Source of the DNA: Trueperaceae bacterium
Lineage (GTDB): Bacteria; Deinococcota; Deinococci; Deinococcales; Trueperaceae
Direction of reading: 5' to 3'
DNA length: 64,000 nucleotides
Assembly (NCBI GenBank): GCA_965213925.1
Contig: OZ243927.1
Span: forward strand, 1,440,001 to 1,504,000
Shown here in pieces: positions 1-35,734 of this stretch. Position 1 is the stretch's first letter. Every line of letters begins with the position of its first letter. The translations under genes and the position numbers were made by a program. Below the pieces are notes generated by a model. The model was not told the DNA's origin, did not search any database, and saw nothing but the letters and a program-made list of their open reading frames with translations.

Positions 1-1033
1 TCTCTTCTAAGCGGGAGGAAATCTCGCGGAGCGCCTCCGCCCAGCGCGAGGTCGAGTCCGCCATGACCGACACCCCGTAGCCCTGGTCGCGGAAGTATTC
101 CGCGATGGTGATGCCCGTATAGATGGACGCTTCGCGCGCCGCCACGGGCATGTTCGAGGTGTTGGCGATGAGCACGGTGCGCTCCATCAAGGGGTTGCCC
201 GAGGTGGGGTCTTCGAGTTCAGGAAACTCCACGAGCACGTCCGTCATCTCGTTGCCACGCTCGCCGCAGCCCACATAGACGACGATGTCCGCGTTGCCGA
301 ACTTCGCAATCGACTGCTGCGTGACGGTTTTACCCGAGCCGAAAGGACCCGGAATCGCCGCCGTGCCGCCCATCGTCAGCGGGAAGAGCACGTCTAAGAT
401 GCGCATTCCGGTCAAGAAGGGCGTGACGGGGTCGAGCTTTTTGGCGACTGGACGCGCCTGGCGCACGGGCCAGGGGTGGTAGAGCTTGAGTTCGGTGCCG
501 TCCTCTAAGGTCGCGATGACCTCCTCGACGGTGTACTCGCCCTTCGAGGCGATAGACTTGATTTTGCCCTTCGTGTCGGGCGGAACCATGATCTTGTGCG
601 TGAACGAGAACTCGGGGACGGTCCCTAAAATCTGACCGCCTTGGACCTCGTCGCCTTCGGAGACTTTGGGGGTGAACTCCCACTTCTGGTCGCGCGAGAG
701 CGAGTCGACCACCAAGCCGCGCCCGATGTAGGTGCCGGACTGCTCGTTGATGGTGTCTAAAGGGCGCTGAATCCCGTCGAAGATGCCGTTGAGCATCCCC
801 GGTCCGAGTTCGACCGTTAAGGGCAAGCCCGTCGAAACGACCGCCTCGCCGATCGTGAGACCGCCCGTATCTTCGTAAACCTGCACGAAAGCGGTGTCGC
901 CGTCCAAGCGGATGATCTCCCCGACGAGTTGCTCCTCGCCGACGCGCACGATGTCAAACATGCGTGCGCCCATCATCCCCTTAGCGATAACCGCCGGACC
1001 CGAGATGCGCTGAACTGTTCCTTCGATGGCCAT
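1..1033 (-). CDS. atpA: V/A-type ATP synthase catalytic subunit A (runs off the window start, 3' part missing)
   Basis: Manual translation from ATG at 1033: [19 protein letters not shown]...[23 protein letters not shown]...ELGPGML..., Walker [46 protein letters not shown] upstream. Not in the ORF track because it is truncated. Confidence 0.97.
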
Positions 1034-1113
1034 TGTTGCCTCCCTTGAAGAGGTATGTCGTTTTGATGCTGAGAGCCTAGATGTCGAACTCTCAGCTTAT
1101 CCTAAGGTTGAAA

Positions 1114-1200
1114 AGTATTCAGTAGTCAGGTGTCAGAATTCAGCAGTCAGCAGGTTTTCCATGCTGAATTCCGATTACTGATACCTGACTACTCAGTATT
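1114..1200. repeat. Heptamer-tandem-repeat inverted hairpin in the atpF-atpA spacer
   Basis: agtattc-agtagtc-aggtgtc-agaattc-agcagtc followed by complementary ctgaatt-ccgatta-ctgatac-ctgacta-ctcagta. Confidence 0.7.
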
Positions 1201-1237
1201 TTACGACTCCATCTTTCGGTCACTACACGCTACTCCG

Positions 1238-1564
1238 TCACTCGAGCTTGATGTCAAACCCGATCGCACTGCGCACGAGCGATTTCATGTAATCTTTGGG
1301 GTCTTCGTCCTCGTCGAACGCCGCGCCCAGGCTGGGCATGGAGAGCAAGACGGGCAGGTCGCGTCCGCGCATGGCGCGCGCCGCTGCCTCGTTAGGTGCC
1401 GGGATGAGCCCCTGGTCTACGGCGACGAGGCCGTAGTCTTCAGATTCAATGACGTTCTCGAGCGCCTCTTGCGCCCCCTCTTGGTCTGTCTCTAAAACCT
1501 CGACGCCTGCCAAGCGGAAGCCCGTGGCGGTCTCGCTGTCGGTCAGAATGAGCATCTTAGCCAC
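1238..1564 (-). CDS. atpF: V/A-type ATP synthase subunit F
   Basis: ILTDSETATGFRLAGVE motif, C-terminal VRSAIGFDIKL, operon position. Confidence 0.95.
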   Translation of the reverse strand: MAKMLILTDSETATGFRLAGVEVLETDQEGAQEALENVIESEDYGLVAVDQGLIPAPNEAAARAMRGRDLPVLLSMPSLGAAFDEDEDPKDYMKSLVRSAIGFDIKLE

Positions 1565-2579
1565 GGCCTACCTCCTTGCCGAGTTCGCGCTCGAGCGCCT
1601 CGCGCGGCACGTTGTAGTATTTGCCCCTCGCGACGAGTCGGAGCCTCGAGGTCTCCTGCTCCTTGAGCCGCAGGTAGTAGAGCACCACGCCGATGCCCAG
1701 AGGGTTGCTCAAGTAGAGCTTGCGGGCGCTTTTATCCAAACTGCTCCGAATCACCTCTTCGGCTTCGCTCAGGTTGTCCGTCTCGGCAACTTCGCTAAAG
1801 CTCGTGTTGGAGAGGGGCTGCATGTCGCCGGAGAGGAGCGTGTCGAACATCGTCCGGCTGACCTCTTTGCCGCCTGAGAGGTAGAGCTTGTCCGCGTCGG
1901 CGTCGCCAACTGCGCTCTGCATCTTCGAAGCGGTGCGGATATTTGCCGCGTCCACCTCGCGCTGGATGTGCCGCGTCAGCATATCCGAGTGCGGGTTTTC
2001 GTCTAGCGCTTCGAAGAGGGCGGCGTAGTAGGCGCGGTCTAGGGCGAGTTCGAATTCGAAGAGGTCGCCGTCTGAGCTGTATTGACCGACGGCTTTGGTA
2101 AAGGCTTTCGAGAGCGGATGCCCGGTGATCGCGAGCGCTTGCGCTGCTGCGGGTAGGTCGGCAGCTTCGGCGATGTTGTTTAAGACCGCTGGCTTGAGTT
2201 CGCCCGCTGGGATAAGGACCGACTTGACGTCCTCCGCCTCGCGCCCCGAGTGCTTCGCCCGCGCGATCGCCTTGAGGTTTTGCAGGTCGTAGCGCAGCAA
2301 AAAGGTCGCGATGAGCCGCTCGGGAGCGCCGTCCGAGAAGTTGAGGATGGTGCGTGTGATGTTGCGGAAGTTGCGGGCTAGCGCAGTATCCACGACGCGC
2401 AGCCCGCTGTGTTGCGACTGCGCCTCCTCCACCTCGCTGCTATAGGGCGACTGCCCGAGCGAACTCATGAAGGCGTCGAACCCGGAAGCGTTGAGGGCGT
2501 CGGCGTAGAAGTCGTCGCCTAAGAGCTTCGCTTTGAGCCCGCGCACCCGCGCGTTGATGTAGCCGTAATCCGAGGGCAT
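1557..2579 (-). CDS. atpC: V/A-type ATP synthase subunit C (d)
   Basis: Likely true start MPSDYGYINARVRG at 2579; YDLQNLKAIARAK and EVDAANIRTA motifs. The ORF-track extension to 2774 overlaps atpE. Confidence 0.93.
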   Translation of the reverse strand: MPSDYGYINARVRGLKAKLLGDDFYADALNASGFDAFMSSLGQSPYSSEVEEAQSQHSGLRVVDTALARNFRNITRTILNFSDGAPERLIATFLLRYDLQNLKAIARAKHSGREAEDVKSVLIPAGELKPAVLNNIAEAADLPAAAQALAITGHPLSKAFTKAVGQYSSDGDLFEFELALDRAYYAALFEALDENPHSDMLTRHIQREVDAANIRTASKMQSAVGDADADKLYLSGGKEVSRTMFDTLLSGDMQPLSNTSFSEVAETDNLSEAEEVIRSSLDKSARKLYLSNPLGIGVVLYYLRLKEQETSRLRLVARGKYYNVPREALERELGKEVGRG

Positions 2580-2583
2580 ATGC

Positions 2584-3270
2584 TTAGCGTTCCTGACTAT
2601 CAGCGTCGTTGCTATCGTCACCGTTGCTATCGTCACCGTTGCTATCGTCACCGTTGCTACTATCGGCGTTGCTCTCGGTATTGCCCTCTGAGAAGAGAAC
2701 CTTGGAGACTTCTGAGGCGAGGTCATCTTTGGCGGACTCCAACCTGTCAAACAGGCTATTCTCCACCGTTGCACTCGCTCTAGTCGAGCGAACTTTGACG
2801 CCGCCCTCGACGGTCTCGTCCGTTTCCATCTTGTCGGCTAAGCCATGCTTTTTCGCCGCATCACTGATGTGCTTTTGGTCGTTCGGGTTGACGTAGAGCT
2901 TGGAGACGTTGTCGCTACCACCTAATGACTCGACGACCTCTTCCAACAAAGAGGTCAACACAGGCTTGTAGCGCTTGGCATCTTGGGTGAGGTCGCGGAG
3001 GTCCTGCTCAACCTGATCGAAGACCGACTCGACGGCGCGGTGCTGCGCCTTGAGCCGCATGGAGGAAGCTTCCAGCTGCGCTGAGCTGCGCCCACGCACC
3101 TTGACGGCTTCGCTCTGCGACGACGACGCGCGTTCCTTTTGTGCGCGAATCGACTCGGCTTCTTCTTCAGCCTGAGACTTAATTTCCGAGGCACGTTCAC
3201 GCGCCTCGGAGAGAATGGACTCGATCTCCGCGCCTGCTTCTTTCTCGAGCAGAGCAGAAAGATTCGCCAC
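2584..3270 (-). CDS. atpE: V/A-type ATP synthase subunit E
   Basis: N-terminal coiled coil, VNPND, GGVKV...VENSLFDRL; low-complexity acidic tail. Confidence 0.92.
   Translation of the reverse strand: MANLSALLEKEAGAEIESILSEARERASEIKSQAEEEAESIRAQKERASSSQSEAVKVRGRSSAQLEASSMRLKAQHRAVESVFDQVEQDLRDLTQDAKRYKPVLTSLLEEVVESLGGSDNVSKLYVNPNDQKHISDAAKKHGLADKMETDETVEGGVKVRSTRASATVENSLFDRLESAKDDLASEVSKVLFSEGNTESNADSSNGDDSNGDDSNGDDSNDADSQER
2607..2659. repeat. 15-bp tandem repeat (about 3.5 copies) encoding the (SNGDD)n tail of subunit E
   Basis: cgttgctatcgtcac x3 plus a partial copy. Confidence 0.9.
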
Positions 3271-3272
3271 GC

Positions 3273-3584
3273 TTAACCCCCTAGGTTACCCTGCAAGAAG
3301 AAGGCGATAACGAAGGCGAAGATGATGATGGTTTCAGGAATGACCAAGTAGATGAGAATCTGACCGAACGCTTCGGGGCGCTCCGCGAGCGTGCCCGCAC
3401 CCGCGCTACCAATCGAGGCTTGCGCGATACCGACGCCGATGGCTCCTAAACCGATGGCGAGCGACGCGCCAATCGCCAAGAGACCGTCGCCGATGCTAGC
3501 ACCGCCGCCGCCGCCCCCTTCTTGGGCGAAGACGAATCCTGCAACGAGCATAAAGGCGAGTACGGATAAAAGTTTCTTCATCAT
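3273..3584 (-). CDS. atpK: V/A-type ATP synthase proteolipid subunit K (c), with N-terminal signal-like segment
   Basis: Gly-rich hairpin GLGAIGVGIAQ...IPETIIIFAF with the carrier Glu. Confidence 0.95.
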   Translation of the reverse strand: MMKKLLSVLAFMLVAGFVFAQEGGGGGGASIGDGLLAIGASLAIGLGAIGVGIAQASIGSAGAGTLAERPEAFGQILIYLVIPETIIIFAFVIAFFLQGNLGG

Positions 3585-5575
3585 GCTTTTCCTCCAAAGA
3601 GTCTAAAGGGATTGTACGGACGACCGTTTTCTTCGTAAAAGCCGAATTTGGTAAAGAATTCGACGTAGTGAAGACGTAAGGGTTGCAGCGTGTGACCGAT
3701 AATCGTCAAGGCGATCGCGACGGTATGCACAAAGAGCGCCGCGATAATCCCTAAAATCGGTCCGATAATGGGCGCGACGCCGTTGAGCGCGAAGCCCACG
3801 TCAGTCGCGAGGTTAGCGACCAACGCGGCGGACAAGCCGACGGCGAAAAGTCGCAAGTAAGAGAGGATGTTGCCCGAGTTGGAGATAAGCTCCACGAGCA
3901 TCAGCGGCATTCGCGCCATCACGACGCCTAACAAAAAGACAGCGAAGCCTAGCGCCACGAAAAAGAGCACGAAGGCGTTGCCCTGCAAATTGTCGGTGAG
4001 AAAGGCGTAGGAAAAAACAACCGTGGCCGCTAAACCGAAGAACATGCCGATACCTTCCCAGGTGTGGTGCGAGTCGCCATGCTTGATGCCGTAGTAGGTG
4101 CGCAGCCCCCAACCGAGCAGCACCTGGAACACGCCGAAACCGATAGAAGCTAACAGCAGCGGCGTGGTTTGTTCTACTCTAAAGAGCAGAATGGGAATCC
4201 AGCCGTAGCCCTCTTCGTGGTGCAAGGGTGTATAGAAAATCGGCTTGCCGCCAAAGATGTAGATTCGCTCTAAAGCGTTACCGAAGAACTCGCCGTAAAT
4301 AAAGCCGAACGCGATGCTCCACGCCGCGCACCAGTTGATGACCGTGCCGATCGTCGGCAGCGCACTCGGCGAGATGGTGATGCCTAGAGGTCCTAAGCTA
4401 AGCGCGTTGCCCTTTTTGCCCCTCGAGCGGAACCACAGCCCGAGCGCTAAGAATGCCAGACCGAAGCCGATATCGCCGACCACTAGACCGAAAAAGAGCG
4501 GGAAGAAGACGGCTAAGGTCCAACTTGGGTCGAAGTAGCCGTATTTAGGCGGGCTGAAGAGCGACAACAACCCCTCGAAGGGGCTGATCCAGCCGGGGTT
4601 CTCGAGCTTGACCGGAATCCCTTTATCGTGGTGTTCGTCCGCCTTGCGCGACTCAGCGACGATGTCCTCACCGAACTGCTTCTCCAGAGCGCTCACCACG
4701 CGGCGGCGGTCCTCACTCGGGACCCAGCCCTGCAGCGCAAAGCTGTAGCGTCCGCCCGCCAGATCACCTAGCGTGTGGTAGCGACTCTGGTAATTGACAG
4801 CGACTTGATGCAGCGCTTTTAGCTTTGCGCCGTGCACCTTCGCGAGATGCCCCAGATCGCTCTGGATGGTCTTGAGGCGCTTAGGCAGCGTTTGCGAGCG
4901 CTCTTCCATCACGTGAACGGCTTTGGCGAAGCCGTGCTCGCCGTAGCGCTCAGGCAGTTTAAGCTCGGCTAAGCCGACGCGGTTGAGCGCCGCCGCAAGT
5001 TCGTTCTTGTCGTCCTTGAGCACGGCGACAACCGCTAAGCGCTCGCTGCGGAAGGACTTGCTCGACATCTCAAAACAATCTTCTAAGGATTCGTTGAGGG
5101 AGTCGCGCGCCTCTTTGAGCGTATCCTCGTCCGGCGCTAAAAACGCTGTACCGTAGAGGTAGCGGCTGCCTTCGAGTTGCGCCAGCTCCGGCGCGAGTTC
5201 TCTGAAGAGTGGCAGATACGTATTGATGAGGTCTAACTCATCACGAATCTCGCCGCGCTCGGCGACGAGGGTGTCCGTCTGGCCGCCCAAGTCACTCAGG
5301 TACGACTGAATCTCGGTGAGGCTATTCGGGACTTCACCCTTGCTGCTCGCTTCACGCTCAATAGAAAGCGTGTCAATGAGGGCTTCGCTCCTCGAGACCA
5401 CGCCGTCCCAGTTATCTCGCGCTTTCTGGTCACCCTCTTTGAGTTCAAAGCGGTTTAGCTCTTCGCCCTCCAAAGGAACGACCTGTACGACGCCCAAGCT
5501 CTGCAAGCTCGTCAAGAGGTCCTTGGCGATACTTTTACGTCCGACGATTAAAAGCCGGTCCATCGTTGCGATCAC
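3581..5575 (-). CDS. atpI: V/A-type ATP synthase subunit I (a)
   Basis: GWVP, FPLFFGLVVGDIGFG, SNSGNILSYLRLFAVGL and LRLHYVEFF motifs. Confidence 0.96.
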   Translation of the reverse strand: MIATMDRLLIVGRKSIAKDLLTSLQSLGVVQVVPLEGEELNRFELKEGDQKARDNWDGVVSRSEALIDTLSIEREASSKGEVPNSLTEIQSYLSDLGGQTDTLVAERGEIRDELDLINTYLPLFRELAPELAQLEGSRYLYGTAFLAPDEDTLKEARDSLNESLEDCFEMSSKSFRSERLAVVAVLKDDKNELAAALNRVGLAELKLPERYGEHGFAKAVHVMEERSQTLPKRLKTIQSDLGHLAKVHGAKLKALHQVAVNYQSRYHTLGDLAGGRYSFALQGWVPSEDRRRVVSALEKQFGEDIVAESRKADEHHDKGIPVKLENPGWISPFEGLLSLFSPPKYGYFDPSWTLAVFFPLFFGLVVGDIGFGLAFLALGLWFRSRGKKGNALSLGPLGITISPSALPTIGTVINWCAAWSIAFGFIYGEFFGNALERIYIFGGKPIFYTPLHHEEGYGWIPILLFRVEQTTPLLLASIGFGVFQVLLGWGLRTYYGIKHGDSHHTWEGIGMFFGLAATVVFSYAFLTDNLQGNAFVLFFVALGFAVFLLGVVMARMPLMLVELISNSGNILSYLRLFAVGLSAALVANLATDVGFALNGVAPIIGPILGIIAALFVHTVAIALTIIGHTLQPLRLHYVEFFTKFGFYEENGRPYNPFRLFGGKA

Positions 5576-6507: not shown

Positions 6508-7269
6508 ATGAACATCAGCCTCTTCATCACCTGCTACAACGACACGCTCTACCCCGAAACGGGCAAGGCGATGGTCGAACTGTTCGAGCGTTTGGGTCAC
6601 GAGGTGGATTTTCCCTTCGAGCAGACTTGTTGCGGACAGATGCACTTCAACACGGGCTATCAGCGGGAGACCTTGATGATGGCGCGCAAGTTCGTGGAGA
6701 TTTTTAGGGACACTGAGGTCGTGGTGTCGCCCTCGGCGTCGTGTGTGGGGATGGTGCACGAGTTCTATCCGTATCTGGCGCAAGAGCATGGCGATGACGC
6801 GCTGCTGAAAGAACTAGAGACGCTCGCGCCTAAAGTCTTTGAATTCTCCGAGTTTTTAGTGAAGAAGTTGGGCATCACCGATGTCGGCGCGTACTACCCG
6901 CACCGCGTCACCTATCACCCGACCTGTCACAGCTTGCGCGGGCTCAAAGTAGGCGACGCGCCCTTGACGTTGCTCGAGCATGTGCGTGGGCTCGAGTTGG
7001 TTGCTCTGGAGGGAGCCGAGACGTGTTGCGGCTTCGGCGGCACATTTGCAGTCAAGAATGCCGACACCTCGGCGGCGATGCTCAGCGACAAGCTCAGGAA
7101 CGTCCAAAATACTCACGCCGAAGTGTGCGCGGCGGTGGATAATTCATGTTTAATGCATATCGGCGGCGCACTCCACAGGCAGCGGAGCGGCGTGAAAACA
7201 GTTCACATCGCGGAGATTTTGGTGGCTACGGATCAGAAAAAGGAGCAAGGAGCAAGAAGCAAGGAGTAA
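6508..7269 (+). CDS. lutA: Lactate utilization protein A (CCG-domain Fe-S protein)
   Basis: SLFITC, QTCCGQMHFNTG, YHPTCHSLR, TCCGFGGTFAVK, SCLMHI. Confidence 0.93.
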   Translation: MNISLFITCYNDTLYPETGKAMVELFERLGHEVDFPFEQTCCGQMHFNTGYQRETLMMARKFVEIFRDTEVVVSPSASCVGMVHEFYPYLAQEHGDDALLKELETLAPKVFEFSEFLVKKLGITDVGAYYPHRVTYHPTCHSLRGLKVGDAPLTLLEHVRGLELVALEGAETCCGFGGTFAVKNADTSAAMLSDKLRNVQNTHAEVCAAVDNSCLMHIGGALHRQRSGVKTVHIAEILVATDQKKEQGARSKE

Positions 7270-7313
7270 GAAGCAAGGCATTTTTATTCTTAATTCTTGC
7301 TTCTTACTTCTCC
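7240..7313. repeat. Heptamer-repeat hairpin overlapping the lutA stop
   Basis: (agcaagg/agcaaga/agtaaga)n then complementary tcttgct-tcttact-tctcc. Confidence 0.7.
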
Positions 7314-7336
7314 AGTTTTAGTAAAGAGAGGTTGAC

Positions 7337-8797
7337 ATGGCACTTCCCAGCAGACCCCCGAGCACAACGCCTATCCCCCTCCCGATGGCGTTTCAAGAGG
7401 CGGCGAAGAGCGAGTTGGAAAACGCCCAATTGCGGCGCAATTTGCACAAGGCAACCCACACCATCCGCGATAAACGCGCCGAGGTCGTGAACGAGCTGCC
7501 CGACTGGGAAGCGTTACGTGACGCAGGGCAGCAGGTTAAAGAAGAGGTCATGCGCAACCTGGACACATATCTGCTGAGGCTCGAGGAGTCCGTCACGAAC
7601 GCAGGCGGGCACGTGCACTGGGCGCGAGACGCAAAAGAAGCGCAAGACATCGTCACGCGCTTGGTCAAGGAGACGGGCACAAAAGAGGTCATTAAAGTCA
7701 AGTCGATGACCACCGAGGAGATTAAACTCAACGACGCGCTAGATGAGGCGGGCGTCCACGCCATCGAGACCGACTTAGCCGAACTCATCATCCAACTCGC
7801 CGGCGAGGAATCCTCGCACATCCTCGTCCCGGCGATTCACAAAAACCGCGCCGAAATCCGCGAACTCTTTTTACGCACGCTAGACGTGGACGAGCTATCC
7901 GACGACCCGAAGGAACTTACCGCAGCGGCGCGGCGCTACTTGCGCGAGAAGTTCTTAAACGTCGAAGTGGGCATCAGCGGCGCGAACTTCGCCGTGGCGG
8001 AAACGGGCACAGTCGGCGTGGTCGAATCTGAAGGCAACGGGCGGATGTGTTTGACGTTACCCAAAACGCTCATCAGTGTGATGGGTTTGGAGAAAATCCT
8101 CCCCTCTTGGCAAGACCTAGAGGTCTTTTTACAACTCCTGCCGCGCTCCTCGACGGGCGAGCGGATGAACCCCTACACGACGATGTGGACGGGACCGCAC
8201 GCAAATCATAGGGGCGGAGACGGACCACAGACCTTTCACCTCGTCCTACTCGATAACGGGCGCACCGACGTGTTGCGCGATGAGGTCGGGCGGCAGGCGC
8301 TCCACTGCATCCGCTGTAGCGCGTGTCTAAACGTTTGCCCCGTGTATGAGAAGGTTGGCGGGCACGCTTACCGCTCTATCTACCCTGGACCCATCGGCGC
8401 GATTTTGACGCCGCAACTCAAAGGAATCGAGAACGCTTCTTCTTTACCCTACGCCTCCTCGCTCTGCGGCGCGTGCTACGAGGTCTGCCCGGTCAAAATC
8501 GACATTCCGAAAGTTTTGGTGCATCTGCGTGGCAAGGTCATCGAAAAGAAAGAGGAGACGTTTAAGGGGAGAGCGAATCAAGAGGCGCTAGCGATGAAAG
8601 GTGCAGCGGCGATTTTTGCGAGCCAGAAGCGTTACGAGCGGGCGCAACGCCTCGCGAAATTGGCGCAGACGCCCTTTGTGCGTAGAGGTGCGATCGAGTA
8701 CTTGCCCGGTTATCTCTCGGGCTGGACGGCGACGCGGGACGTCAAAGCCGTGCCGCAAGAATCCTTCCGCGATTGGTGGCGCAAGCGTGAGCAGTAA
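7337..8797 (+). CDS. lutB: Lactate utilization protein B (LUD plus 4Fe-4S)
   Basis: KVKSMTTEEI, ETDLAELIIQL, ESEGNGRM, CIRCSACLNVCPVY, SSLCGACYEVCPVKI. Confidence 0.95.
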   Translation: MALPSRPPSTTPIPLPMAFQEAAKSELENAQLRRNLHKATHTIRDKRAEVVNELPDWEALRDAGQQVKEEVMRNLDTYLLRLEESVTNAGGHVHWARDAKEAQDIVTRLVKETGTKEVIKVKSMTTEEIKLNDALDEAGVHAIETDLAELIIQLAGEESSHILVPAIHKNRAEIRELFLRTLDVDELSDDPKELTAAARRYLREKFLNVEVGISGANFAVAETGTVGVVESEGNGRMCLTLPKTLISVMGLEKILPSWQDLEVFLQLLPRSSTGERMNPYTTMWTGPHANHRGGDGPQTFHLVLLDNGRTDVLRDEVGRQALHCIRCSACLNVCPVYEKVGGHAYRSIYPGPIGAILTPQLKGIENASSLPYASSLCGACYEVCPVKIDIPKVLVHLRGKVIEKKEETFKGRANQEALAMKGAAAIFASQKRYERAQRLAKLAQTPFVRRGAIEYLPGYLSGWTATRDVKAVPQESFRDWWRKREQ

Positions 8798-9443
8798 GGG
8801 CGTAGACAGTAGCGGGAGCGCGAAAGAGGTCATTCTAGGACGTATCCGCGAGATTATGCAGGACGCGCCCGCAGCGGAGCCGATCGCGCGCGAATATATT
8901 CAAACGTCTGAGCACGATGCGTCGTCGCAAATCGACCTCTTTACCGAGCGTCTGGTGGATTACGGTGCGGACGTTCATCATGTGACCTCTTCTGAGATTT
9001 CGAAAAAAGTGGCGGAGCTTTGTGGGGCTCAAAAGGTCGAAAGTTTGGTCGTACCAGCGGACTTGCCGCAGGACTGGCTGCCGAAAGAGGTGGAGATTCG
9101 TCCTGACGAGGGGTTGGGGCGGGAGGTGCTCGAGTCCACCGGCGGCGTCATGACCGGCTGCGCGCTCGCCGTCGCCCAAACCGGCACGATCATATTAGAC
9201 GGCGGCGAGCGGCAGGGGCGGCGCGTGATTACCTTGCTGCCCGACTTTCACATCTGCGTCGTCTTATCTGAACAAATCGCGGGCATCGTGCCCGAAGCCG
9301 TGAGCCGCTTGAAACCTTCCGCGAAGCGCCCGCTGACCTTTATCTCGGGACCCTCCGCCACCTCCGACATCGAGCTGAGCCGCGTCGAAGGCGTCCACGG
9401 TCCGCGCTCGCTCGCGGTGCTCGTGGTGAAAGGGGCGAGCTAA
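8787..9443 (+). CDS. lutC: Lactate utilization protein C
   Basis: GTG at 8787; AVAQTGTI, LTFISGPSATSDIELSRVEGVHGP. Confidence 0.93.
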   Translation: MSSKGVDSSGSAKEVILGRIREIMQDAPAAEPIAREYIQTSEHDASSQIDLFTERLVDYGADVHHVTSSEISKKVAELCGAQKVESLVVPADLPQDWLPKEVEIRPDEGLGREVLESTGGVMTGCALAVAQTGTIILDGGERQGRRVITLLPDFHICVVLSEQIAGIVPEAVSRLKPSAKRPLTFISGPSATSDIELSRVEGVHGPRSLAVLVVKGAS

Positions 9444-9645
9444 AGCGCACGTCTTTTCGCCTAACGGCTCAGGGCGACAGTCTCACCTTTCAGCCGATAG
9501 CCCAACCTCATCTCGAAAGGCTTCTTCACGCCTTTCTCACCTCCCGCTGATAGTTCTCTGAAGGATTTTAGGGTATAATCGTGTAATCCATCTAGGAGGC
9601 AGGGCCGCCACTCACAACCCGACTAACACAGATACGGACTCTGGC

Positions 9646-10248
9646 ATGGACGATATCAACAACCACGACACCATCCACGCACTCGACCCCTTCGCCTACG
9701 ACGAGGACCTGGAAGCGCTCAGCCCGATCGCAAACGTTAATGCGACGCGGGTGCTGATCCTCAACGCCTCATACGAGCCGCTGCATGTTTGCTCGGTTAA
9801 ACGGGCGGTGGCGCTTCTCATGTATGAGGTTGCCGAGCGCGTCGAGGACAGCGCCCGTGTGCTCCGCTCGCCCAGTCAAATCTTTGTGGTGCCGAGCGTG
9901 ATCCGCCTCAAGAAGTACGTGAAGCGTCCCCCGCGCCACCGCGTCGCCTTTAACCGCAAAAATGTCTTCCGCCGCGACGACCACACCTGCCAGTACTGCT
10001 TCGTCAAGAGCAGCGACCTCACGCTCGACCACGTGTTGCCGCGCAGTCGGGGCGGGGGAACGAGCTGGGAGAACGTGGTGGCGTGCTGCCACAAGTGCAA
10101 CGCGAAAAAGCGCGACCGTACCCCCGATGAGGCGAAGATGGCGCTCAAGCGCAAACCCTACGCGCCGCGCTTTATGTTCTCTTCGGCGTACGGCATCTTG
10201 CCGAGCATCGACCCGATTTGGGAAAAGTATCTACCGCGCTCCAAGTAA
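9646..10248 (+). CDS. HNH endonuclease (McrA/COG1403-like)
   Basis: VLILNASYEPL, VPSVIRL, CQYC...LTLDHVLPRSRGG...WENVVACCHKCNAKK; TATAAT at 9574-9579. Confidence 0.9.
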   Translation: MDDINNHDTIHALDPFAYDEDLEALSPIANVNATRVLILNASYEPLHVCSVKRAVALLMYEVAERVEDSARVLRSPSQIFVVPSVIRLKKYVKRPPRHRVAFNRKNVFRRDDHTCQYCFVKSSDLTLDHVLPRSRGGGTSWENVVACCHKCNAKKRDRTPDEAKMALKRKPYAPRFMFSSAYGILPSIDPIWEKYLPRSK

Positions 10249-10257
10249 TACGAGGTT

Positions 10258-10288
10258 GCACGGCTTAGTCTGAAAAACTAAGCCGTGC
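10258..10288 (+). terminator. Stem-loop after the HNH gene
   Basis: gcacggcttag / ctaagccgtgc 11-bp perfect stem, no clear U-tract. Confidence 0.55.
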
Positions 10289-10762
10289 CCTTCACGGATG
10301 AGACGTAAACTCGGCGCGACCCGCTAGCTAAAGCTGAGTTGCTGAAGAGTTTTATGCGCGAAGTAAAGTCGCTCTGCTCCCGCTGGGCGAAGCAACGCCC
10401 TCAGTAAGAATAATAAGGATAAGTAGTGCAATTCCGTATAACTTCGCCAGCGTTCGCTCGAGCCTCGTACAAAACGTGTCCTCACCTCGGTCTTCATCCA
10501 AGTTCTAACCGAACATTATCCTCTCTCTCATCGTGTATAGGTTGAGAGAGGGTTTCTTCGGCTTATTCAGAGCTGCAACTCGCATTTTCTCACCTTTTAT
10601 AAGAAACCGTTCATTACAATATAACAACTTTCATTTTCTTCGGGCAGTGCGTCGTGTAGAGAGGGAGACTCGCACCTTTGGGTTTAAGCGGATAGCTACG
10701 CGTCGCCGCCGAACCAGCTAACCAACACGCTCACTTAAACACGTTCGCTTAACAGAGGGGAA

Positions 10763-28768: not shown

Positions 28769-28941
28769 TTGTCACCCTGTTCACGCGAGTAGGGCGTTAG
28801 CTTTGCAAAGGACCTTTAAGAAAGCAATGAGTGAAAACCAAAAGACTTTTATTCATTGCTTGTTGCTCATTGCTCGCTACTTCCTAAAAATTCGCTCCGT
28901 TCAGAATGGCGTGATTCAGTTGTTACTTAACGATGTTCTCA
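28769..28941 (+). mobile_element. Decayed MITE copy interrupted by a heptamer-repeat hairpin (28823-28884)
   Basis: ttgtcaccctgttcacg matches the copy-1 interior; cgttcagaatg...ttaacgatgttc matches the right end; agcaatgag...ctcattgctc lies between them. Confidence 0.6.
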
Positions 28942-29145
28942 GTACACCGTCAACTAAATTCTGCGACGCCGTTGTCACCCCGAGCGAAGTCGAGGGGTCT
29001 CGCCTTGCAGTCTCAGTCAGAGGAGAAGGCAAGTTCAGAGATTCTTCGACTCCGCTTTGCTCCGCAAGGCTTAACGCGTCACTTCGTTCCCGCTGGCGAC
29101 TTCGTGAACAGAATGACACAACTCATTTTTTATCTAACGATGTAC
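28942..29145 (+). mobile_element. MITE-like dispersed repeat, copy 2
   Basis: GTACACCGTCAA...CTAACGATGTAC, flanks TCA/TTA, same internal blocks as copy 1. Confidence 0.8.
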
Positions 29146-29157
29146 TTAGGGGTTGCC

Positions 29158-30828
29158 GTGGATAAGCTCGAGTCCGACCTCTCCTTAGAAGCGCGCCGCA
29201 ACGACCCCTTTCACGCGCAGAAAAAATCGTGGGCGGAGCACGCCGAGGCGTTAGAAAGAGAGCGTGAGCGCGTCGCTAAAGGCGGCGGCGAAAAAGCCAT
29301 CAAGCGCCAGCACGGTAAGAACCGGCTGACGGCGAGAGAGCGTATCGCTAAACTGATTGATGAGGGTACGCCGTTCGATGAGCTGATGACCTTCGCAGGC
29401 GACGGATTATATGAAGAGGTCGGCGGTGCACCGTCGGGCGGGACGGTCGCGGGCATCGGCAAGGTGGCGGGGCGCGACTGGATGGTCATAGCGAACGACG
29501 CCACGGTCAAAGCGGGCGCGTTCTTTCCGATTACGGCGAAAAAAGTGATTCGGGCGCAGACGATTGCCTTGGAAAATCACCTCCCCACTATCTATCTCGT
29601 GGACTCGGCGGGTGTCTATTTGCCCATGCAAGACGAGATTTTCCCCGACCAAGACGACTTCGGGCGCGTCTTCTACCTCAACGCGCGGATGAGCGCGTTA
29701 GGCATCCCGCAGATGGCGGCGATCATGGGCAACTGCGTGGCGGGCGGTGCGTACTTGCCTGTTATGTGTGACACGCTCATTATGACGGAGGGCTCGGGGC
29801 TCTACTTGGCGGGTCCGGCTCTGGTCAAAGCCGCCATCGGGCAAGAGGTCAGCAGCGAGGACTTGGGCGGCGCGGCGATGCACGCGGAGGTCGCGGGAAC
29901 CGTGGACTATTTTGAACCGGACGACGAGAGCGCCTTAAAGAGGTTGCGCAGCTTGGCCGGAACCTACGCGCCCGCTGAGTTAGCGCCCTGGGCGGAGGAT
30001 AGGGGAGAGGTCAAAGAACCCAAGCTCAAGTCGCAAGACCTCTTGGGCGTTGTGCCCCCCGAGGGTGGTAAGCGCCCCTACGAAGTGCGCGAGGTGATCG
30101 GGCGGCTGGTGGACGGCTCTACGTTCGACGAGTACAAAGCGAAGTACGGCAAAACTATCGTCTGCGGCACGGCGCGTTTGGGTGGCTACGCGGTGGGCAT
30201 CGTGGCGAACCAGAAGACAGCCGTCAAATCGAAGGGGAAGCTCCAAGTCGGCGGCGTCATCTACGGCGACGCGGCGGACAAGGCGGCGCGCTTTATCCTC
30301 AACTGCAACCAGATGGGGATTCCCTTAATTTTTCTCCACGACGTGAACGGCTTTATGGTCGGACGTGAGAGCGAGCATGAGGGCATCATCCGACGCGGCG
30401 CGAAGATGGTCAACGCGGTTTCGAACAGCGTCGTGCCGCGTATCAGCGTCATCCTGGGCGGCTCGTACGGCGCGGGGCACTACGCGATGAGCGGCAAGGC
30501 GTACGCGCCGCGCTTTATCTTCGCGTGGCCGAGCGCCAAGTACAGCGTGATGGGCGGGCAGCAAGCCGCGAAGACCATTCTGGATATCCAAGCGGCGCAG
30601 CTTAAGCGTGCAGGCAAAGAGCCCGACGACGAAGAGATAGCTGCCTTATATGAGCAGATTCGCGGCGACTACGAACGCGCCCTGGATATCCGCTACGCGG
30701 CGGCGCGGCTCTGGGTGGATGAGGTGATTTTGCCGCTCGAGACCCGTGACCGCCTCATCCGCGCTTTAGACGCTTGTGCGCAAAATGCGGAGATGGAGGA
30801 ATTGAAAGTCGGTGTGTTTCAAGTATGA
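29158..30828 (+). CDS. Acyl-CoA carboxylase carboxyltransferase (methylcrotonyl-CoA carboxylase beta-like)
   Basis: RLTARERI, ANDATVKAG, YLVDSAG, GNCVAGGAY, LYLAGPALVK, GSYGAGHYAM, YAAARLWVD. The ORF-track start at 28933 lies just upstream of the MITE and reads through it; GTG 29158 has an AGGGG RBS. Confidence 0.92.
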   Translation: MDKLESDLSLEARRNDPFHAQKKSWAEHAEALERERERVAKGGGEKAIKRQHGKNRLTARERIAKLIDEGTPFDELMTFAGDGLYEEVGGAPSGGTVAGIGKVAGRDWMVIANDATVKAGAFFPITAKKVIRAQTIALENHLPTIYLVDSAGVYLPMQDEIFPDQDDFGRVFYLNARMSALGIPQMAAIMGNCVAGGAYLPVMCDTLIMTEGSGLYLAGPALVKAAIGQEVSSEDLGGAAMHAEVAGTVDYFEPDDESALKRLRSLAGTYAPAELAPWAEDRGEVKEPKLKSQDLLGVVPPEGGKRPYEVREVIGRLVDGSTFDEYKAKYGKTIVCGTARLGGYAVGIVANQKTAVKSKGKLQVGGVIYGDAADKAARFILNCNQMGIPLIFLHDVNGFMVGRESEHEGIIRRGAKMVNAVSNSVVPRISVILGGSYGAGHYAMSGKAYAPRFIFAWPSAKYSVMGGQQAAKTILDIQAAQLKRAGKEPDDEEIAALYEQIRGDYERALDIRYAAARLWVDEVILPLETRDRLIRALDACAQNAEMEELKVGVFQV

Positions 30829-30895
30829 AGGACTGAGGTCAAAGGACTGAGGACTGAGAGAAAAGAGGGTTTTACTCAGTCCTCAGTCCTTTCAT
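30826..30895. repeat. Heptamer-repeat hairpin at the carboxylase stop
   Basis: (ggactga)n ... (tcagtcc)n. Confidence 0.75.
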
Positions 30896-30978
30896 CTTTC
30901 CTCTTTGACATCCGAGTTGCAGGCCCATGTATTCGAGCACTCCGCGCATTTCCTCCCCTCACCTGTCATACTGTATCT

Positions 30979-31608
30979 ATGAACAACTCACCGTCTGAGT
31001 CAGTGCCCCGCCTCGTCGTCGTGGCGGCGTCGGCAGGGGGGCTCGTGGCGTTAGAGACGTTCCTCTCACACTTGCCCAAAAGCTTTCCCGCGCCGCTCGT
31101 CATCGTCTTGCACCTCTCGCCCGACCACCGCAGCATGATGGCGGAGGTTTTAGGGCGCTATACCGATATGCGGGTGAAGCAAGTCGAAGAGGGCGACACT
31201 TTAAGGGCGGGGACGGTCTACTGTGCGCCGCCGGACTTTCACGTGTTGGTGACGGACGAGCGGAAACTCACGCTGACGCACACAGTTCAAGTTCAATACG
31301 TGCGCCCCTCGGCGGACGCGCTCTTCGAGTCGGCGGCGCAGGTTTACGGCGCGGGCGTCGTGGCGGTGGTGCTCTCGGGTACGGGGCGCGACGGCAAAAA
31401 TGGCGTCGAAGTCGTCAAGGAGCGGGGCGGCGTCACCCTGGCGCAAGACGAGGCGAGTGCGCAGCATTTTGGGATGCCCAAAGCGTCGATTGAGACGGGC
31501 GTGGTGGACTTCGTGCTGCCGTTAGAGGAGCTTGCGACGAAGGTGCTCGAGCTGACCTCCTCCAACCCCGAACCCGACACCAAACGCACAGTTGAGGAGA
31601 CCCCGTGA
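30979..31608 (+). CDS. cheB: Stand-alone CheB methylesterase domain (no receiver domain)
   Basis: AASAGG (catalytic Ser), IVLHL (His), RPSADALF, LSGTGRDG (Asp), GMP. Confidence 0.92.
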   Translation: MNNSPSESVPRLVVVAASAGGLVALETFLSHLPKSFPAPLVIVLHLSPDHRSMMAEVLGRYTDMRVKQVEEGDTLRAGTVYCAPPDFHVLVTDERKLTLTHTVQVQYVRPSADALFESAAQVYGAGVVAVVLSGTGRDGKNGVEVVKERGGVTLAQDEASAQHFGMPKASIETGVVDFVLPLEELATKVLELTSSNPEPDTKRTVEETP

Positions 31609-33539
31609 GCGCCCCCGACGGTTCAACCAATAGCTTAGAGACCCTTGAGGTTCAAGATAGGGCAGCGTTCGAGGATTTGCTCGAGTACTTAAACGTAAAG
31701 CGCAGCATCGACTTCACGGGCTACAAGCGCACCTCTTTGATGCGGCGCTTCGGGCGGCGGATGCAGGTGGTCGGCACCGAATCCTACAGCGACTACCTCG
31801 ACTACTTGGAGGTCCACCCCGAAGAGTTCGATCTCTTGTTCAACACCGTTTTAATCAACGTGACCTCGTTTTTTCGCGATGAGGCGGCGTGGCGTGCGCT
31901 CGCGGAAGAGGTCGTCGCGCCTTTGGTGGAGCGGAAGGCAGGTGAGCCCATTCGCGCCTGGAGCGCGGGCTGCGCGACGGGCGAAGAGGCGTACTCGCTC
32001 GCGATTCTGCTCGCCGAGGCGCTAGGTGTGGACACCTTTCGCAAGCAGGTCAAGATTTACGCCACCGACATCGACGACGAAGACCTCGTTAGGGCGCGGC
32101 AGGGCGTCTACAGCGCGGACAGGGTCGCAGATATGAACGCAGACCTCTTGGAGCGCTACTTCGAGTACGCCTCGGGCAACTACGTCTTTCGGAACGACTT
32201 GCGCCGCGCCGTGATCTTTGGGCGGCACAATCTGGTCTCCGACGCGCCGATTTCGCAGCTCGACCTCTTGCTCTGCCGCAACACCATGATGTACTTTAAC
32301 CGCGAGTTGCAAGAGCGCGTCTTGGCGCGTTTTCACTTCGCGCTTAAAGAGGGCGGCGCGCTCTTTTTGGGCAAAGCCGAGACGATGCTCTCGCGCTCGG
32401 AGCGCTTCAAGCCGCTGAGCCTCAAGCACCGGCTCTTTACGAAGTCCGAAGGCGGGTCGCTGCGCGAACGCCTCCTCACGCTGACCCAGGCGGCCCGTAT
32501 GACCGGGGGTGAGGAGAGCGGGCGCTGGGTGGCGCAAGAGGTGCGGCTGCGCGAAGTCGCCTTTAACGTCTCGCCCGAAGCGCAGGTCGTGGTGGACGCT
32601 AGGGGGCGGCTCGCGCTCGCCAACAGCCGCGCCCGCACCCTGTTTGGTCTTTCCGACGAGAACATCGGGCGCAACTTTCAGGACTTGCGGCTCTCCTACC
32701 AGCCCGCCGAGCTGCGCACGGCGATGGAGAGCGTAACGCAAAAGCGTGACCTCATCCACCTGGGCGGCGTCGAATACGTCTATAACAATGAGGTGCTGCA
32801 CCTAGACGTGCAAATCGTCCCGCTGGTCAACGGGGGTTACAGTAACGGCAACGGTCCGAATGGGGCTACCCCTAAACCTTTGGGCGTCAGCATTCTCTTT
32901 CGCGACGTGACCTCTCACAAACGCTTGCAGAACAGCCTGGAACTCTCCAACGCCGAGCTAGAGACCGCCTACGAGGAGCTTCAGTCCACCAACGAGGAGT
33001 TAGAGACCACTAATGAGGAGCTTCAGTCCACGGTGGAAGAGTTAGAGACCACCAACGAAGAGATGCAGAGCACCAACGAAGAACTAGAGACGATGAACGA
33101 GGAGATGCAGTCCACCAACGAAGAGTTAGAAACCATGAACGAGGAGCTGCGCCTGCGCACCGAAGAGGTGGACCGCTTGAACGTCTTTTTGGAGTCGATC
33201 TTGGGCTCTCTGCGCGCGGCGGTGGTGGTATTAGACCATCAGCTTAATATCTATATCTGGAACGCCCGCGCGGAGGACCTGTGGGGCTTACGCGCCGACG
33301 AGGTGGCGGGGCGCTCGCTCTTCACCTTAGATATTGGAATTGACGTGGACGCCCTCAAAACGCCCGTACGCGCCTGCTTGACGGAACAGTCCAAACACGA
33401 AGAGGTGACGCTAGAGGCGCTCAACCGGCGCGGCAGGACGTTTCAGTGCCGCGTGACCTGTACGAGCTTTGAGGCACTGGACAACGATTTACGCGGAGTG
33501 ATTTTACTCATGGAGGAACAAGGGGCGAGTGATGCGTGA
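31605..33539 (+). CDS. cheR: CheR methyltransferase-PAS-coiled coil-PAS protein
   Basis: DFTGYKR, INVTSFFRD, WSAGCATGEEAYS, IYATDID, LLCRN, LFLGKAE; PAS; heptad tract EELQSTNEELETTNEELQS...; second PAS; no kinase domain. Confidence 0.92.
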   Translation: MSAPDGSTNSLETLEVQDRAAFEDLLEYLNVKRSIDFTGYKRTSLMRRFGRRMQVVGTESYSDYLDYLEVHPEEFDLLFNTVLINVTSFFRDEAAWRALAEEVVAPLVERKAGEPIRAWSAGCATGEEAYSLAILLAEALGVDTFRKQVKIYATDIDDEDLVRARQGVYSADRVADMNADLLERYFEYASGNYVFRNDLRRAVIFGRHNLVSDAPISQLDLLLCRNTMMYFNRELQERVLARFHFALKEGGALFLGKAETMLSRSERFKPLSLKHRLFTKSEGGSLRERLLTLTQAARMTGGEESGRWVAQEVRLREVAFNVSPEAQVVVDARGRLALANSRARTLFGLSDENIGRNFQDLRLSYQPAELRTAMESVTQKRDLIHLGGVEYVYNNEVLHLDVQIVPLVNGGYSNGNGPNGATPKPLGVSILFRDVTSHKRLQNSLELSNAELETAYEELQSTNEELETTNEELQSTVEELETTNEEMQSTNEELETMNEEMQSTNEELETMNEELRLRTEEVDRLNVFLESILGSLRAAVVVLDHQLNIYIWNARAEDLWGLRADEVAGRSLFTLDIGIDVDALKTPVRACLTEQSKHEEVTLEALNRRGRTFQCRVTCTSFEALDNDLRGVILLMEEQGASDA

Positions 33540-33864
33540 GCGAGATAAAAACAAAGTGGGTACGCCGGAGGCTGAAGCGGAGGCGAAAGCGCAAGAGGTC
33601 GAGCGCTTAGCGCGGAAGCTCGAGGCTGAAGTCGCTAGGGCGAAAGAGAGCACGAAGAGGTTAGAAACGACGATCAAACGCGCGGAAGAGGGGATTCACA
33701 CGCTCGAGGACCAAAGCCACAGCTTCGAGGAAACCCTCCACGACGCGCACGGCGAGCATCACGAGACCGAGGATAAGGTTGAGGAGCTAAAGGCCGATTC
33801 TAAAACCGACTCAGATACTGTTTTAGTCATCGAAGAAAGTACAAATGCACCTAATGAAACGTAA
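33532..33864 (+). CDS. Small charged coiled-coil protein translationally coupled to cheR
   Basis: Start overlaps the cheR stop; E/K/R-rich helical sequence. Confidence 0.65.
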   Translation: MRERDKNKVGTPEAEAEAKAQEVERLARKLEAEVARAKESTKRLETTIKRAEEGIHTLEDQSHSFEETLHDAHGEHHETEDKVEELKADSKTDSDTVLVIEESTNAPNET

Positions 33865-33983
33865 GCAAACGTCTAGTTCTAAACCGTAGAAAACGCTACA
33901 CTTTCTGGTGAGAAACTATTATGGAACTCCGGGGTGATTTCGGGAGAGCAACGTGAAGGACGTGGAAAGGACACTTCAACGAC

Positions 33984-35246
33984 GTGGCAACTGGCTTCAC
34001 ACAACGTATTGAAAAACTGCAGAGCTACATCGACACCTTGAAAAAGCGTACCGATGACCCTGTACTCGCTGACCTGGAGGTGTATGAGCAGCTTTCGACG
34101 ACGTTGGAGGAGCTTCAAGTCGCCGAGGAGGAGTTGACGCAGCAAAACGAGATGCTCGTTCAGGCTCAGGAGGGACTGGAGCGCGAGCGGGGGCGCTACC
34201 GCGACCTCTTCGAGTTCGCGCCGGACGGCTACCTGGTGACGGATAGCTCAGGGGTGATTCGCGAGGCGAACCGCGCCGCCGAGCGCCTTTTAGGTAAACC
34301 CGCTGACTATCTGCGCGGCAAACCTCTTTCGGTCTATTTGCATAGCGACGCTCAGCGCGACCTTCGCCAGACACTCGCGCGTCTCACAAGGCGAGAGGAT
34401 GAGGGGAGCGCAGCGCAACCCGAACGCTGGGAGTTAGGGCTCAAAACGGGGTATGAAGGTGAGGAGCCTACCGTAGAGGTCAAGGTGATGCAAGTTCGGG
34501 AGGACGAAGGCGTCACGTTCCGCTGGGGGCTGCGCGAGATCACGGAGCGCAAGGAGATGGAGGAGGCGCTCAGGCGAAGCCAGCTCCGCTTCCGCCAAGC
34601 TTTCCGCATCGGTCCCGTCGCCGCGATCATCACCTCTTTGGAGGACGAAACGCTCCTAGAGGTCAACAGCGCCTTCGAGCGCTTGACCGGCTATTCCCAG
34701 GACGAAGCGCTGGGGCGCACGAGCGAGGAGCTAGGCTTGTGGGCGTCCCCCGAAGACCAGGCTACGATTGAGCGGGCGATGAACGAGGGCGGCGCGTACC
34801 GCGAGGTCGAGCTGCACGTGCGCACGAAACATAACGGCGTGCGCAACATTTTATCCTCCACGGAAATCATCGCGCTGAACGGTCATAACGGCATGTTGCA
34901 CATGTTCTATGACATCACCAAGCGCAAGCAGAGCGAAGAGGAACTTATGCAAGCCATCAACACGGTGATGCAAGACACCGCCTGGTTCAGCCGCTCGGTG
35001 GTCGAAAAGCTCACGCAGCTCCAATCCGGCGAGTTAGACCCCAAGATGGTTTCCGAGCTGACTAAACGCGAGCGTCAAGTTTTAGAGCGCGTGGCGCAGG
35101 GTCACTCCAACGAGGCGATCTCAGAGGATTTGGGCATCGCCAAGCAAACCGTGCGCAACTACGTGACGCGCGTCTACGAGAAGCTGGGCGTACATACCCG
35201 CGCCGAAGCCGTCGTGTGGGCTCGAGAGCGGGGACTGTCGGGTTAA
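33984..35246 (+). CDS. Coiled coil-PAS-PAS-LuxR HTH transcriptional regulator
   Basis: LEELQVAEEELTQQNE, RYRDLFEFAPDGYLVTD (PAS1), EVNSAFERLTGY (PAS2), LTKRERQVL...GHSNEAI...TVRNYV...KLGV (LuxR). Confidence 0.9.
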   Translation: MATGFTQRIEKLQSYIDTLKKRTDDPVLADLEVYEQLSTTLEELQVAEEELTQQNEMLVQAQEGLERERGRYRDLFEFAPDGYLVTDSSGVIREANRAAERLLGKPADYLRGKPLSVYLHSDAQRDLRQTLARLTRREDEGSAAQPERWELGLKTGYEGEEPTVEVKVMQVREDEGVTFRWGLREITERKEMEEALRRSQLRFRQAFRIGPVAAIITSLEDETLLEVNSAFERLTGYSQDEALGRTSEELGLWASPEDQATIERAMNEGGAYREVELHVRTKHNGVRNILSSTEIIALNGHNGMLHMFYDITKRKQSEEELMQAINTVMQDTAWFSRSVVEKLTQLQSGELDPKMVSELTKRERQVLERVAQGHSNEAISEDLGIAKQTVRNYVTRVYEKLGVHTRAEAVVWARERGLSG

Positions 35247-35503
35247 TCCAGGGTGGAACGGGTGCAAGCCGAGCACTCATCGCGAGTAAGAGAGCATGGA
35301 GCGCAGGAGGGATAGAAAATTTATCCTCCTGTCTTAGTCTTGCCTTCTCAGTACCCACCCCTGAGTACATCTGCCTCTATTCGTAGCCCCTTTTTTTGTG
35401 TACTCTTAGAAGTAAACAGTAGTCTGTGAGGTCGGTGAAGAGGTTTGTTTGAGACAGCCTCGCGGGTCTTGCGGGCTGTCTTGAATCTACTTTGGGGGTA
35501 GAG

Positions 35504-35734
35504 ATGACACATTTCGGGGAGTACTTCAAACTTTTGGAACGCTTAGACACTTCGCTAGAGTCCACCTCAGCGAAGGAATGCTCAGAAAAAGAGTTGGAGG
35601 CGCGTCTGCGTGAACTTGGTTATATCGTGCGGCACGACGAGAGGCTTGAGCCCTGGCAGCGCACTGTCCTCTTAGAGCAGCTTTTTTTACTGCAACGCCC
35701 TACGCTTGCACCGAAGCGCGTACATGATGCATAA
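35504..35734 (+). CDS. Small hypothetical protein
   Basis: GGGGG RBS-like tract before ATG; no recognisable motif. Confidence 0.4.
   Translation: MTHFGEYFKLLERLDTSLESTSAKECSEKELEARLRELGYIVRHDERLEPWQRTVLLEQLFLLQRPTLAPKRVHDA

Follow-up and report, generated by a model that had tools for sequence, protein, structure and literature searches.

A split CheB/CheR locus of a Trueperaceae bacterium with a receiver-less coil-PAS-PAS-LuxR protein in place of a kinase: a possible case of methylation-controlled transcription

The locus described here lies in a stretch of 64,000 nucleotides from a Trueperaceae bacterium (contig OZ243927.1, positions 1,440,001 to 1,504,000), which we refer to as the window, and it consists of four genes, all on the + strand: cheB (30979..31608, 209 amino acids), where CheB_methylest is the only Pfam domain and a receiver is missing; cheR-PAS-coil-PAS (31605..33539, 644 amino acids), with CheR_N, CheR and PAS (Pfam) followed by a coil and a second PAS domain, and with no output domain; a small coiled-coil open reading frame (ORF; 33529..33864), of 111 amino acids from a GTG codon or 110 from the next ATG, which overlaps the stop codon of cheR; and luxR (33984..35246, 420 amino acids), which encodes a receiver-less transcription factor with the order hairpin-coil-PAS-PAS-LuxR (Pfam: PAS, PAS, GerE). 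Three parts of these proteins are central to our analysis: a predicted long helix of 100 residues in the CheR protein (residues 436-535; 32910..33209, +), which is the best candidate methyl acceptor; a predicted N-terminal helical hairpin of the LuxR protein (33990..34214, +), composed of helices 3-22 and 28-77 and running into a PAS domain with a mean predicted local distance difference test score of 88 (AlphaFold2); and the LuxR output region (residues 314-420; 34923..35243, +), where the last helix and the linker of a NarL-type receiver precede the LuxR helix-turn-helix.

The first-pass annotation had described the locus as four co-oriented genes, the first three translationally coupled, with no receiver in the CheB and LuxR proteins and no kinase in the CheR protein, and our analysis agrees on each of these points: the four frames share one strand, cheB overlaps cheR by 4 nucleotides and cheR overlaps the small ORF by 8-11 nucleotides, and the domain scans return the same architecture, while luxR is preceded by a gap of 119 nucleotides after the small ORF. 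HisKA and HATPase domains are absent from all four proteins and from the window, and among the ORFs of the window local profiles built from this genome detect none for a kinase, a receiver or a GGDEF protein; the nearest matches to methyl-accepting chemotaxis proteins (MCPs) and CheW are located about 160 kb away, in line with the earlier statement that the window holds no MCP, CheA, CheW, CheY or kinase.

Five genomes from two genera share the gene order cheB-cheR-small ORF-coil-LuxR, namely the genome of the window (G000, 96.9% complete), G001, G002, G005 and G273, and these same five are the only ones with an orthologue of the split CheR among the 364 genomes of the phylum that were searched; the four-gene module is real and conserved, and the synteny that had been proposed as a check on its reading is observed. 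A counterpart of the small ORF, similar in position and make-up, occurs in all five loci, with 64-70% identity within the genus and, in the second genus, with a likeness judged by eye alone; it carries Glu/His heptads, belongs to no family in Pfam or in the ESM Atlas (where recognition is low), and was rejected as a methyl acceptor, as the second Glu is not conserved.

Judged by alignment, the enzyme motifs of CheB and CheR are intact. Solved CheB enzymes (PDB IDs: 3SFT and 6YMZ) have a conserved Ser/His/Asp set, with which residues Ser18, His45 and Asp138 of the CheB of the window align; where the solved enzymes carry a Gly, this CheB has Ala16. In CheR, residues Arg48, Arg91, Asp155 and Tyr230 are each matched by the identical residue of 1AF7, and their conservation among 35 orthologues is 90-100%. 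We take these aligned residues to be the catalytic ones. The patchy distribution of the module (5/364 genomes) and Ala16 in place of the motif Gly would suit a module that no longer signals by methylation, either as a horizontally gained remnant or with enzymes that only act as scaffolds, but the four frames are intact in five genomes although their CheR proteins have diverged to 62% identity, and both the active-site residues and the coil are conserved, so that we regard such a loss of function as improbable.

The two halves of the LuxR protein have different relatives. Its N-terminal half is 42-47% identical to partner proteins that carry kinase, SpoIIE or GGDEF outputs, while residues 314-420 share 44% identity, over 106 amino acids, with a paralogue of the receiver-LuxR type; the matches span only residues 312-419, the receiver core is missing, and there is no phospho-accepting receiver domain. 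The PAS-LuxR family to which the C-terminal half belongs is present in 51 of 128 genomes of the bacterial family, most of them without CheR, and the ESM Atlas places the LuxR protein among generic PAS-LuxR clusters. The protein thus looks like a domain swap, with the N-terminal half of a kinase partner joined to the C-terminal half of a local PAS-LuxR family. A Foldseek search with the model of the N-terminal half returned generic PAS domains as top matches, the hairpin being present in none of the matches listed.

In chemoreceptors, the methylation consensus is given, in the part of the source that we draw on, as two small residues, two of any kind, an E/Q pair, two of any kind and two small residues, where the second residue of the pair, located at heptad position c, is the modified one (PMC6829392). 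Residues 457-507 of the CheR coil hold eight EE pairs that follow one another at a strict spacing of 7, and the net charge over residues 445-514 is -25; six of the eight pairs match three of the four small positions, with two small residues at +4/+5. In the LuxR coil, the pairs EQ35-36, EE42-43 and EE49-50 share one register, and a single site (42-43) matches three of the four small positions. When the leucines are set at position d, the pairs fall at heptad positions b-c in both coils. The heptad-spaced pairs noted at first pass are therefore present in both proteins, apart from QQ53-54 of the LuxR protein, which lies outside the register. The additional suggestion that the substrate is the coil of LuxR and/or CheR is supported in part, since the coil of CheR ranks better (six three-of-four sites versus one): by its fit to the consensus, CheR's own coil is the best predicted substrate, while Glu43 and Glu50 of the LuxR protein form a weaker, but conserved, second predicted substrate. 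EE pairs alone are weak evidence of methylation. The coils also have weak NCBIfam and Pfam matches to SMC and further helical families, which we set aside as generic to coiled coils.

The LuxR residues Glu42, Glu43, Leu44 and Glu50 are invariant in 35 relatives that are encoded next to cheR and have a mean identity of 47%. Glu occurs at position c in 92% (Glu43) and 94% (Glu50) of 217 coils, and in 38 divergent coils, where position b changes to His or Ile, position c is still Glu in 82% (43) and 97% (50); the coils were gathered by a profile of the same motif, and these conservation figures are therefore partly circular. Glu at both positions 43 and 50 is found in only 3% of 377 other helices that enter PAS domains.

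A search of GTDB genomes with the LuxR coil gave 438 confirmed loci, the best 80 of which, holding 87 coil proteins, supply the counts that follow; they come from cyanobacteria, Chloroflexota, Gemmatimonadota, Planctomycetota, Acidobacteriota and other phyla. The coil is N-terminal in 65 of the 87 proteins, and for 44 of these the locus includes cheR (30 of 41 when at least 3 kb is available on both sides), while cheR accompanies 1 of the 22 proteins with an internal coil. The usual layout is cheB, cheR-PAS-coil-PAS and coil-PAS-kinase; a kinase domain is present in 60 of the 87 proteins, and among 21 coil proteins scanned with Pfam the other outputs are GGDEF-EAL (2), SpoIIE (1) and a Crp-type helix-turn-helix (4). 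By these matches, the hairpin-coil-PAS unit is a widespread module whose usual output is a histidine kinase.

Loci of this layout recall the methyl-accepting coiled-coil (MAC) systems, which were reportedly named by Wuichet and Zhulin in 2010. In the phylum of the window (364 genomes), the coil-PAS unit occurs in 37 genomes and a MAC-type CheR in 89, with both in 35 of the 37; in the cyanobacterial phylum (201 genomes), the coil occurs in 42 genomes and CheR in 61, with both in 41 of the 42, and the coil is present in 25 of 25 cyanobacterial genomes with a split CheR. In the searches of the 364 genomes, only 8 and 3 candidates per genome were scored, so that misses are possible. The co-occurrence is an association and not a statistical proof, because related genomes do not count as independent observations and large genomes are more likely to carry either trait. 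In 37 genomes with a coil protein that has no adjacent cheR, a split CheR is encoded elsewhere in 25 (in two of them in two pieces) and a coil-bearing fusion in 10 more.

Several of the lineages covered have arrangements of their own. In Deinococcus, a divergent coil subtype with a kinase or GGDEF output adjoins kinase-less CheB-CheR-coil proteins; in loci L059-L073, such a protein is accompanied by a coil-PAS-kinase and by one or two further CheBs, and in many cases by a coil-PAS-GGDEF protein as well, and L071 (G100) retains only broken remnants of this type of locus. In a common cyanobacterial family of about 390 amino acids, together with one Blastocatellia protein, the same hairpin-coil-PAS unit is joined to a Crp-type helix-turn-helix (e.g. 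L129:5775-6950, L136:7926-9305, L141:9800-11053, L092:7141-8565, and proteins of L170, L175, L176, L178 and L180), which, by domain content, is a second DNA-binding output of the module. Loci L094, L116, L142 and similar ones from Nostocales encode CBS-coil-PAS hybrid kinases with an internal coil and no cheR nearby; these genomes hold a coil-bearing CheR elsewhere, and action in trans is possible.

The closest association of the LuxR and CheR proteins is seen in fusions, which were found by searching for longer relatives of the C-terminal half of the LuxR protein. Single chains of the form CheB-CheR-coil-PAS-LuxR, free of kinase and receiver, are P0271 (1343 amino acids) and P0274 (L185:1391-5092, +; 1206 amino acids), while P0275 (L184:5995-9734, +) runs from CheR to LuxR in one chain, with cheB located just upstream; two GTDB genomes of further genera contribute L201 (G266; 6546-10451, -; 1301 amino acids) and L202 (G295; 124-4689, -; 1521 amino acids). 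In a FastTree tree with 52 rows, three label changes are required to explain the four fused ones; the CheR of the window belongs to a fully supported clade that is separate from the fusions. This points to at least two, and at most four, couplings of LuxR to CheR. Both this tree and a quick tree are unrooted and carry no clade test, for which reason we claim neither a donor nor an order of events. The fusions strengthen the case for a direct link from CheR/CheB to LuxR, as postulated at first pass; other possible substrates exist in the genome.

The locus is free of receptors and kinases, as its first description stated, but the genome is not: it contains two CheB-CheR-PAS-coil-kinase fusions (C1:1228405 and C1:4115440) and a chemosensory cluster (C1:1630098-1640876, L012) with receivers, CheA, two MCPs and CheW, located about 160 kb from the locus. 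The search for MCP and cheA genes that had been recommended as a check thus finds them, but away from the locus. A second coil-PAS-LuxR protein (C1:1233292, 583 amino acids) adjoins one of the kinase fusions; no protein of the genome other than these two coil-PAS-LuxR proteins has this coil, and each of the two adjoins a CheR. In the region of the second one (C1:1228405-1236510; L009:6406-14511), the CheB-CheR-coil-kinase fusion, a lone receiver, the coil-PAS-LuxR gene and a GGDEF gene lie in a row, which is kept in G001 (L016). A lone CheB of 329 amino acids with a C-terminal Cys/His-rich extension is also encoded (C1:499152-500141; L011:7153-8142, -), and CheBs of similar length lie within many related loci, including those of G005 and G273.

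The cluster at C1:1630-1641 kb holds the only MCP and CheW-domain matches of the genome and has neither cheR nor cheB of its own, and one of its MCPs has three three-of-four sites (694, 736 and 744) near the signalling domain; the CheR and CheB of the window might accordingly be the adaptation enzymes of this cluster. Chemosensory clusters do exist without CheR, since our control, Deinococcus radiodurans, yields matches to MCP and CheW and none to CheR; moreover, the neighbours of the CheR clade of the window are coil-PAS proteins and not MCPs, and the other MCP has no consensus site in its cytoplasmic part. Service to the distant MCPs is, in our estimate, the least probable of the explanations that we have weighed.

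The reading that we prefer, with a probability of roughly 0.55, is that the locus is a split MAC2-like module where the kinase has been replaced by a receiver-less PAS-LuxR protein, and where CheR and CheB set DNA binding through the methylation of coil glutamates. Because a DNA-binding regulator occupies the position that the kinase has in related clusters, reversible glutamate methylation likely controls transcription without phosphorylation. In the mechanism that we propose, CheR would methylate its own eight-heptad coil, at the second Glu of each EE pair, while its two PAS domains would tune the balance against unphosphorylated CheB; the hairpin coil of the LuxR protein would serve both as partner surface and, through Glu43 and Glu50, as second methyl acceptor; and charge neutralisation would alter the packing of the LuxR dimer, a change that would pass through the two PAS domains to the helix-turn-helix.

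A more specific version of this mechanism, which we advance only tentatively, is a direct switch, where CheR methylates Glu43 and Glu50 of the LuxR protein and CheB erases the mark with no phosphoryl step; the hairpin-coil-PAS unit would then be a portable methylation-input module carried on kinase, GGDEF-EAL, SpoIIE, Crp and LuxR outputs, with LuxR coupled to CheR/CheB on several lineages. The main rival, which we consider clearly less probable than our preferred reading, is that methylation is confined to the coil of CheR (or to those of the two kinase fusions), and that the LuxR protein is a PAS-sensing one-component regulator, which has inherited its coil as a dimerisation helix and is merely co-located with CheR or only docks on it. 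The better fit and the higher conservation of the CheR coil are in keeping with such a restriction, as are the frequency of EE-rich PAS linkers, the erosion of the first pair in many Crp-type coils, the occurrence of the PAS-LuxR C-terminal half mostly without CheR, and the gap before luxR, which may be transcribed separately. On the other side, coil-bearing LuxR proteins occur solely beside CheR, the split CheR protein itself lacks an output domain, the surface residues Glu43 and Glu50 are invariant at a mean identity of 47%, and the fusions put the same LuxR and CheR in one chain.

Several observations weigh against methylation control of the LuxR protein, besides the circularity and the dependence among genomes that were described above. 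No site in the CheR or LuxR coil matches the full four-of-four chemoreceptor consensus; EE is found in the last 14 residues of 63% of the 377 other PAS-entry helices; both coils are strongly acidic, so that a stable heterocomplex is not favoured; the genome offers alternative substrates, i.e. the two CheB-CheR-kinase fusions and the two MCPs; and in the cyanobacterial coil-PAS-Crp proteins Glu43 is often lost with or without a split CheR (3/11 versus 1/8), Glu50 being kept in 17 of 19. The last comparison was drawn from 27 loci, five of which were dropped for want of the anchor motif, while two were not of the Crp type and one gave no row; a decay of Glu43 upon absence of the split CheR was sought in these coils and rejected, there being no difference. 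The frequent loss of the first pair means that the hairpin can persist without it.

Upstream of luxR (33865-33983), a stretch of about 20 nucleotides, with a short inverted repeat inside, is near-identical in G000, G001 and G002, and is a possible promoter or operator; a promoter and terminator consensus scan of positions 30780-35600 gave nothing above shuffled sequences. The upstream neighbour of the module (28933-30828, same strand) is a carboxyl transferase gene, with no evidence for membership in the module.

The targets of CheR and CheB in the widespread MAC systems are the question on which this locus bears: it is a small, fully soluble case of four proteins, where the candidate residues can be named and DNA binding can be read out directly, and which has one-gene versions in the single-chain fusions. 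If our reading is true, chemotaxis-type glutamate methylation would not merely be a device of receptor adaptation, but would serve as an on/off or memory mark on bacterial signalling proteins in general, transcription factors included.

Compared with known systems, the catalytic domains of the window are homologous to those of chemotaxis CheR (1AF7, 5FTW) and CheB (1CHD, 3SFT), with conserved active-site residues, and EE pairs at heptad positions b-c followed by small residues likewise occur; unlike the chemotaxis enzymes, the CheB of the window lacks a receiver and the CheR bears its own coil and two PAS domains, while no chemoreceptor, CheW or CheA, which define the canonical chemosensory cluster, is encoded at the locus, and no full consensus site is present. 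The LuxR protein shares the helix-turn-helix, with the preceding helix and linker, with NarL/FixJ-type regulators (VraR 5HEV, DesR 4LDZ, VpsT 3KLN), but it lacks their receiver core, and its CheR-linked N-terminal hairpin coil is foreign to them. With PAS domains and a LuxR helix-turn-helix but no receiver, it has the composition of a one-component regulator, and PAS sensing in the same chain is also seen in one-component PAS-helix-turn-helix factors (FG214, 10JX; a match of the PAS fold only).

The closest relatives are the MAC systems. In the parts of the sources on which we rely, MAC proteins combine receptor-like and kinase parts, with CheB and CheR built into the same protein in MAC1 and associated with it in MAC2 (bioRxiv 2022.05.07.491037; PMC6943060), and MiST has profiles for both classes (PMC6943060). 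The description of MAC proteins as experimentally uncharacterised, in the part consulted of the former (bioRxiv 2022.05.07.491037), also tells against our reading. A full-text search for CheB and CheR combined with LuxR or a transcription factor found no report, although the founding MAC paper of 2010 may already list DNA-binding outputs. As in MAC1 and MAC2, CheB and CheR of the window occur together with an acidic heptad coil and PAS domains, with no MCP, CheA or CheW, and the CheR and coil-PAS parts are clear orthologues of those from loci where the partner is a kinase. CheB and CheR are associated, but not fused, with a coil-bearing signalling protein, as in MAC2, and the coils carry Glu pairs that resemble methylation sites (eight in CheR, two to three in LuxR); the one-chain order CheB-CheR-coil-output of MAC1 is split here, and is seen in two other genes of this genome (with kinase output) and in the LuxR fusions of its relatives. 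The partner protein ends in a LuxR helix-turn-helix and not in the histidine kinase described for MAC proteins in those parts of the sources, and a small coil gene is added; because the kinase is lacking, we place the locus as a variant of MAC2 and not as a member, and what appears to be new here is a kinase-free variant of the named MAC systems with a LuxR output.

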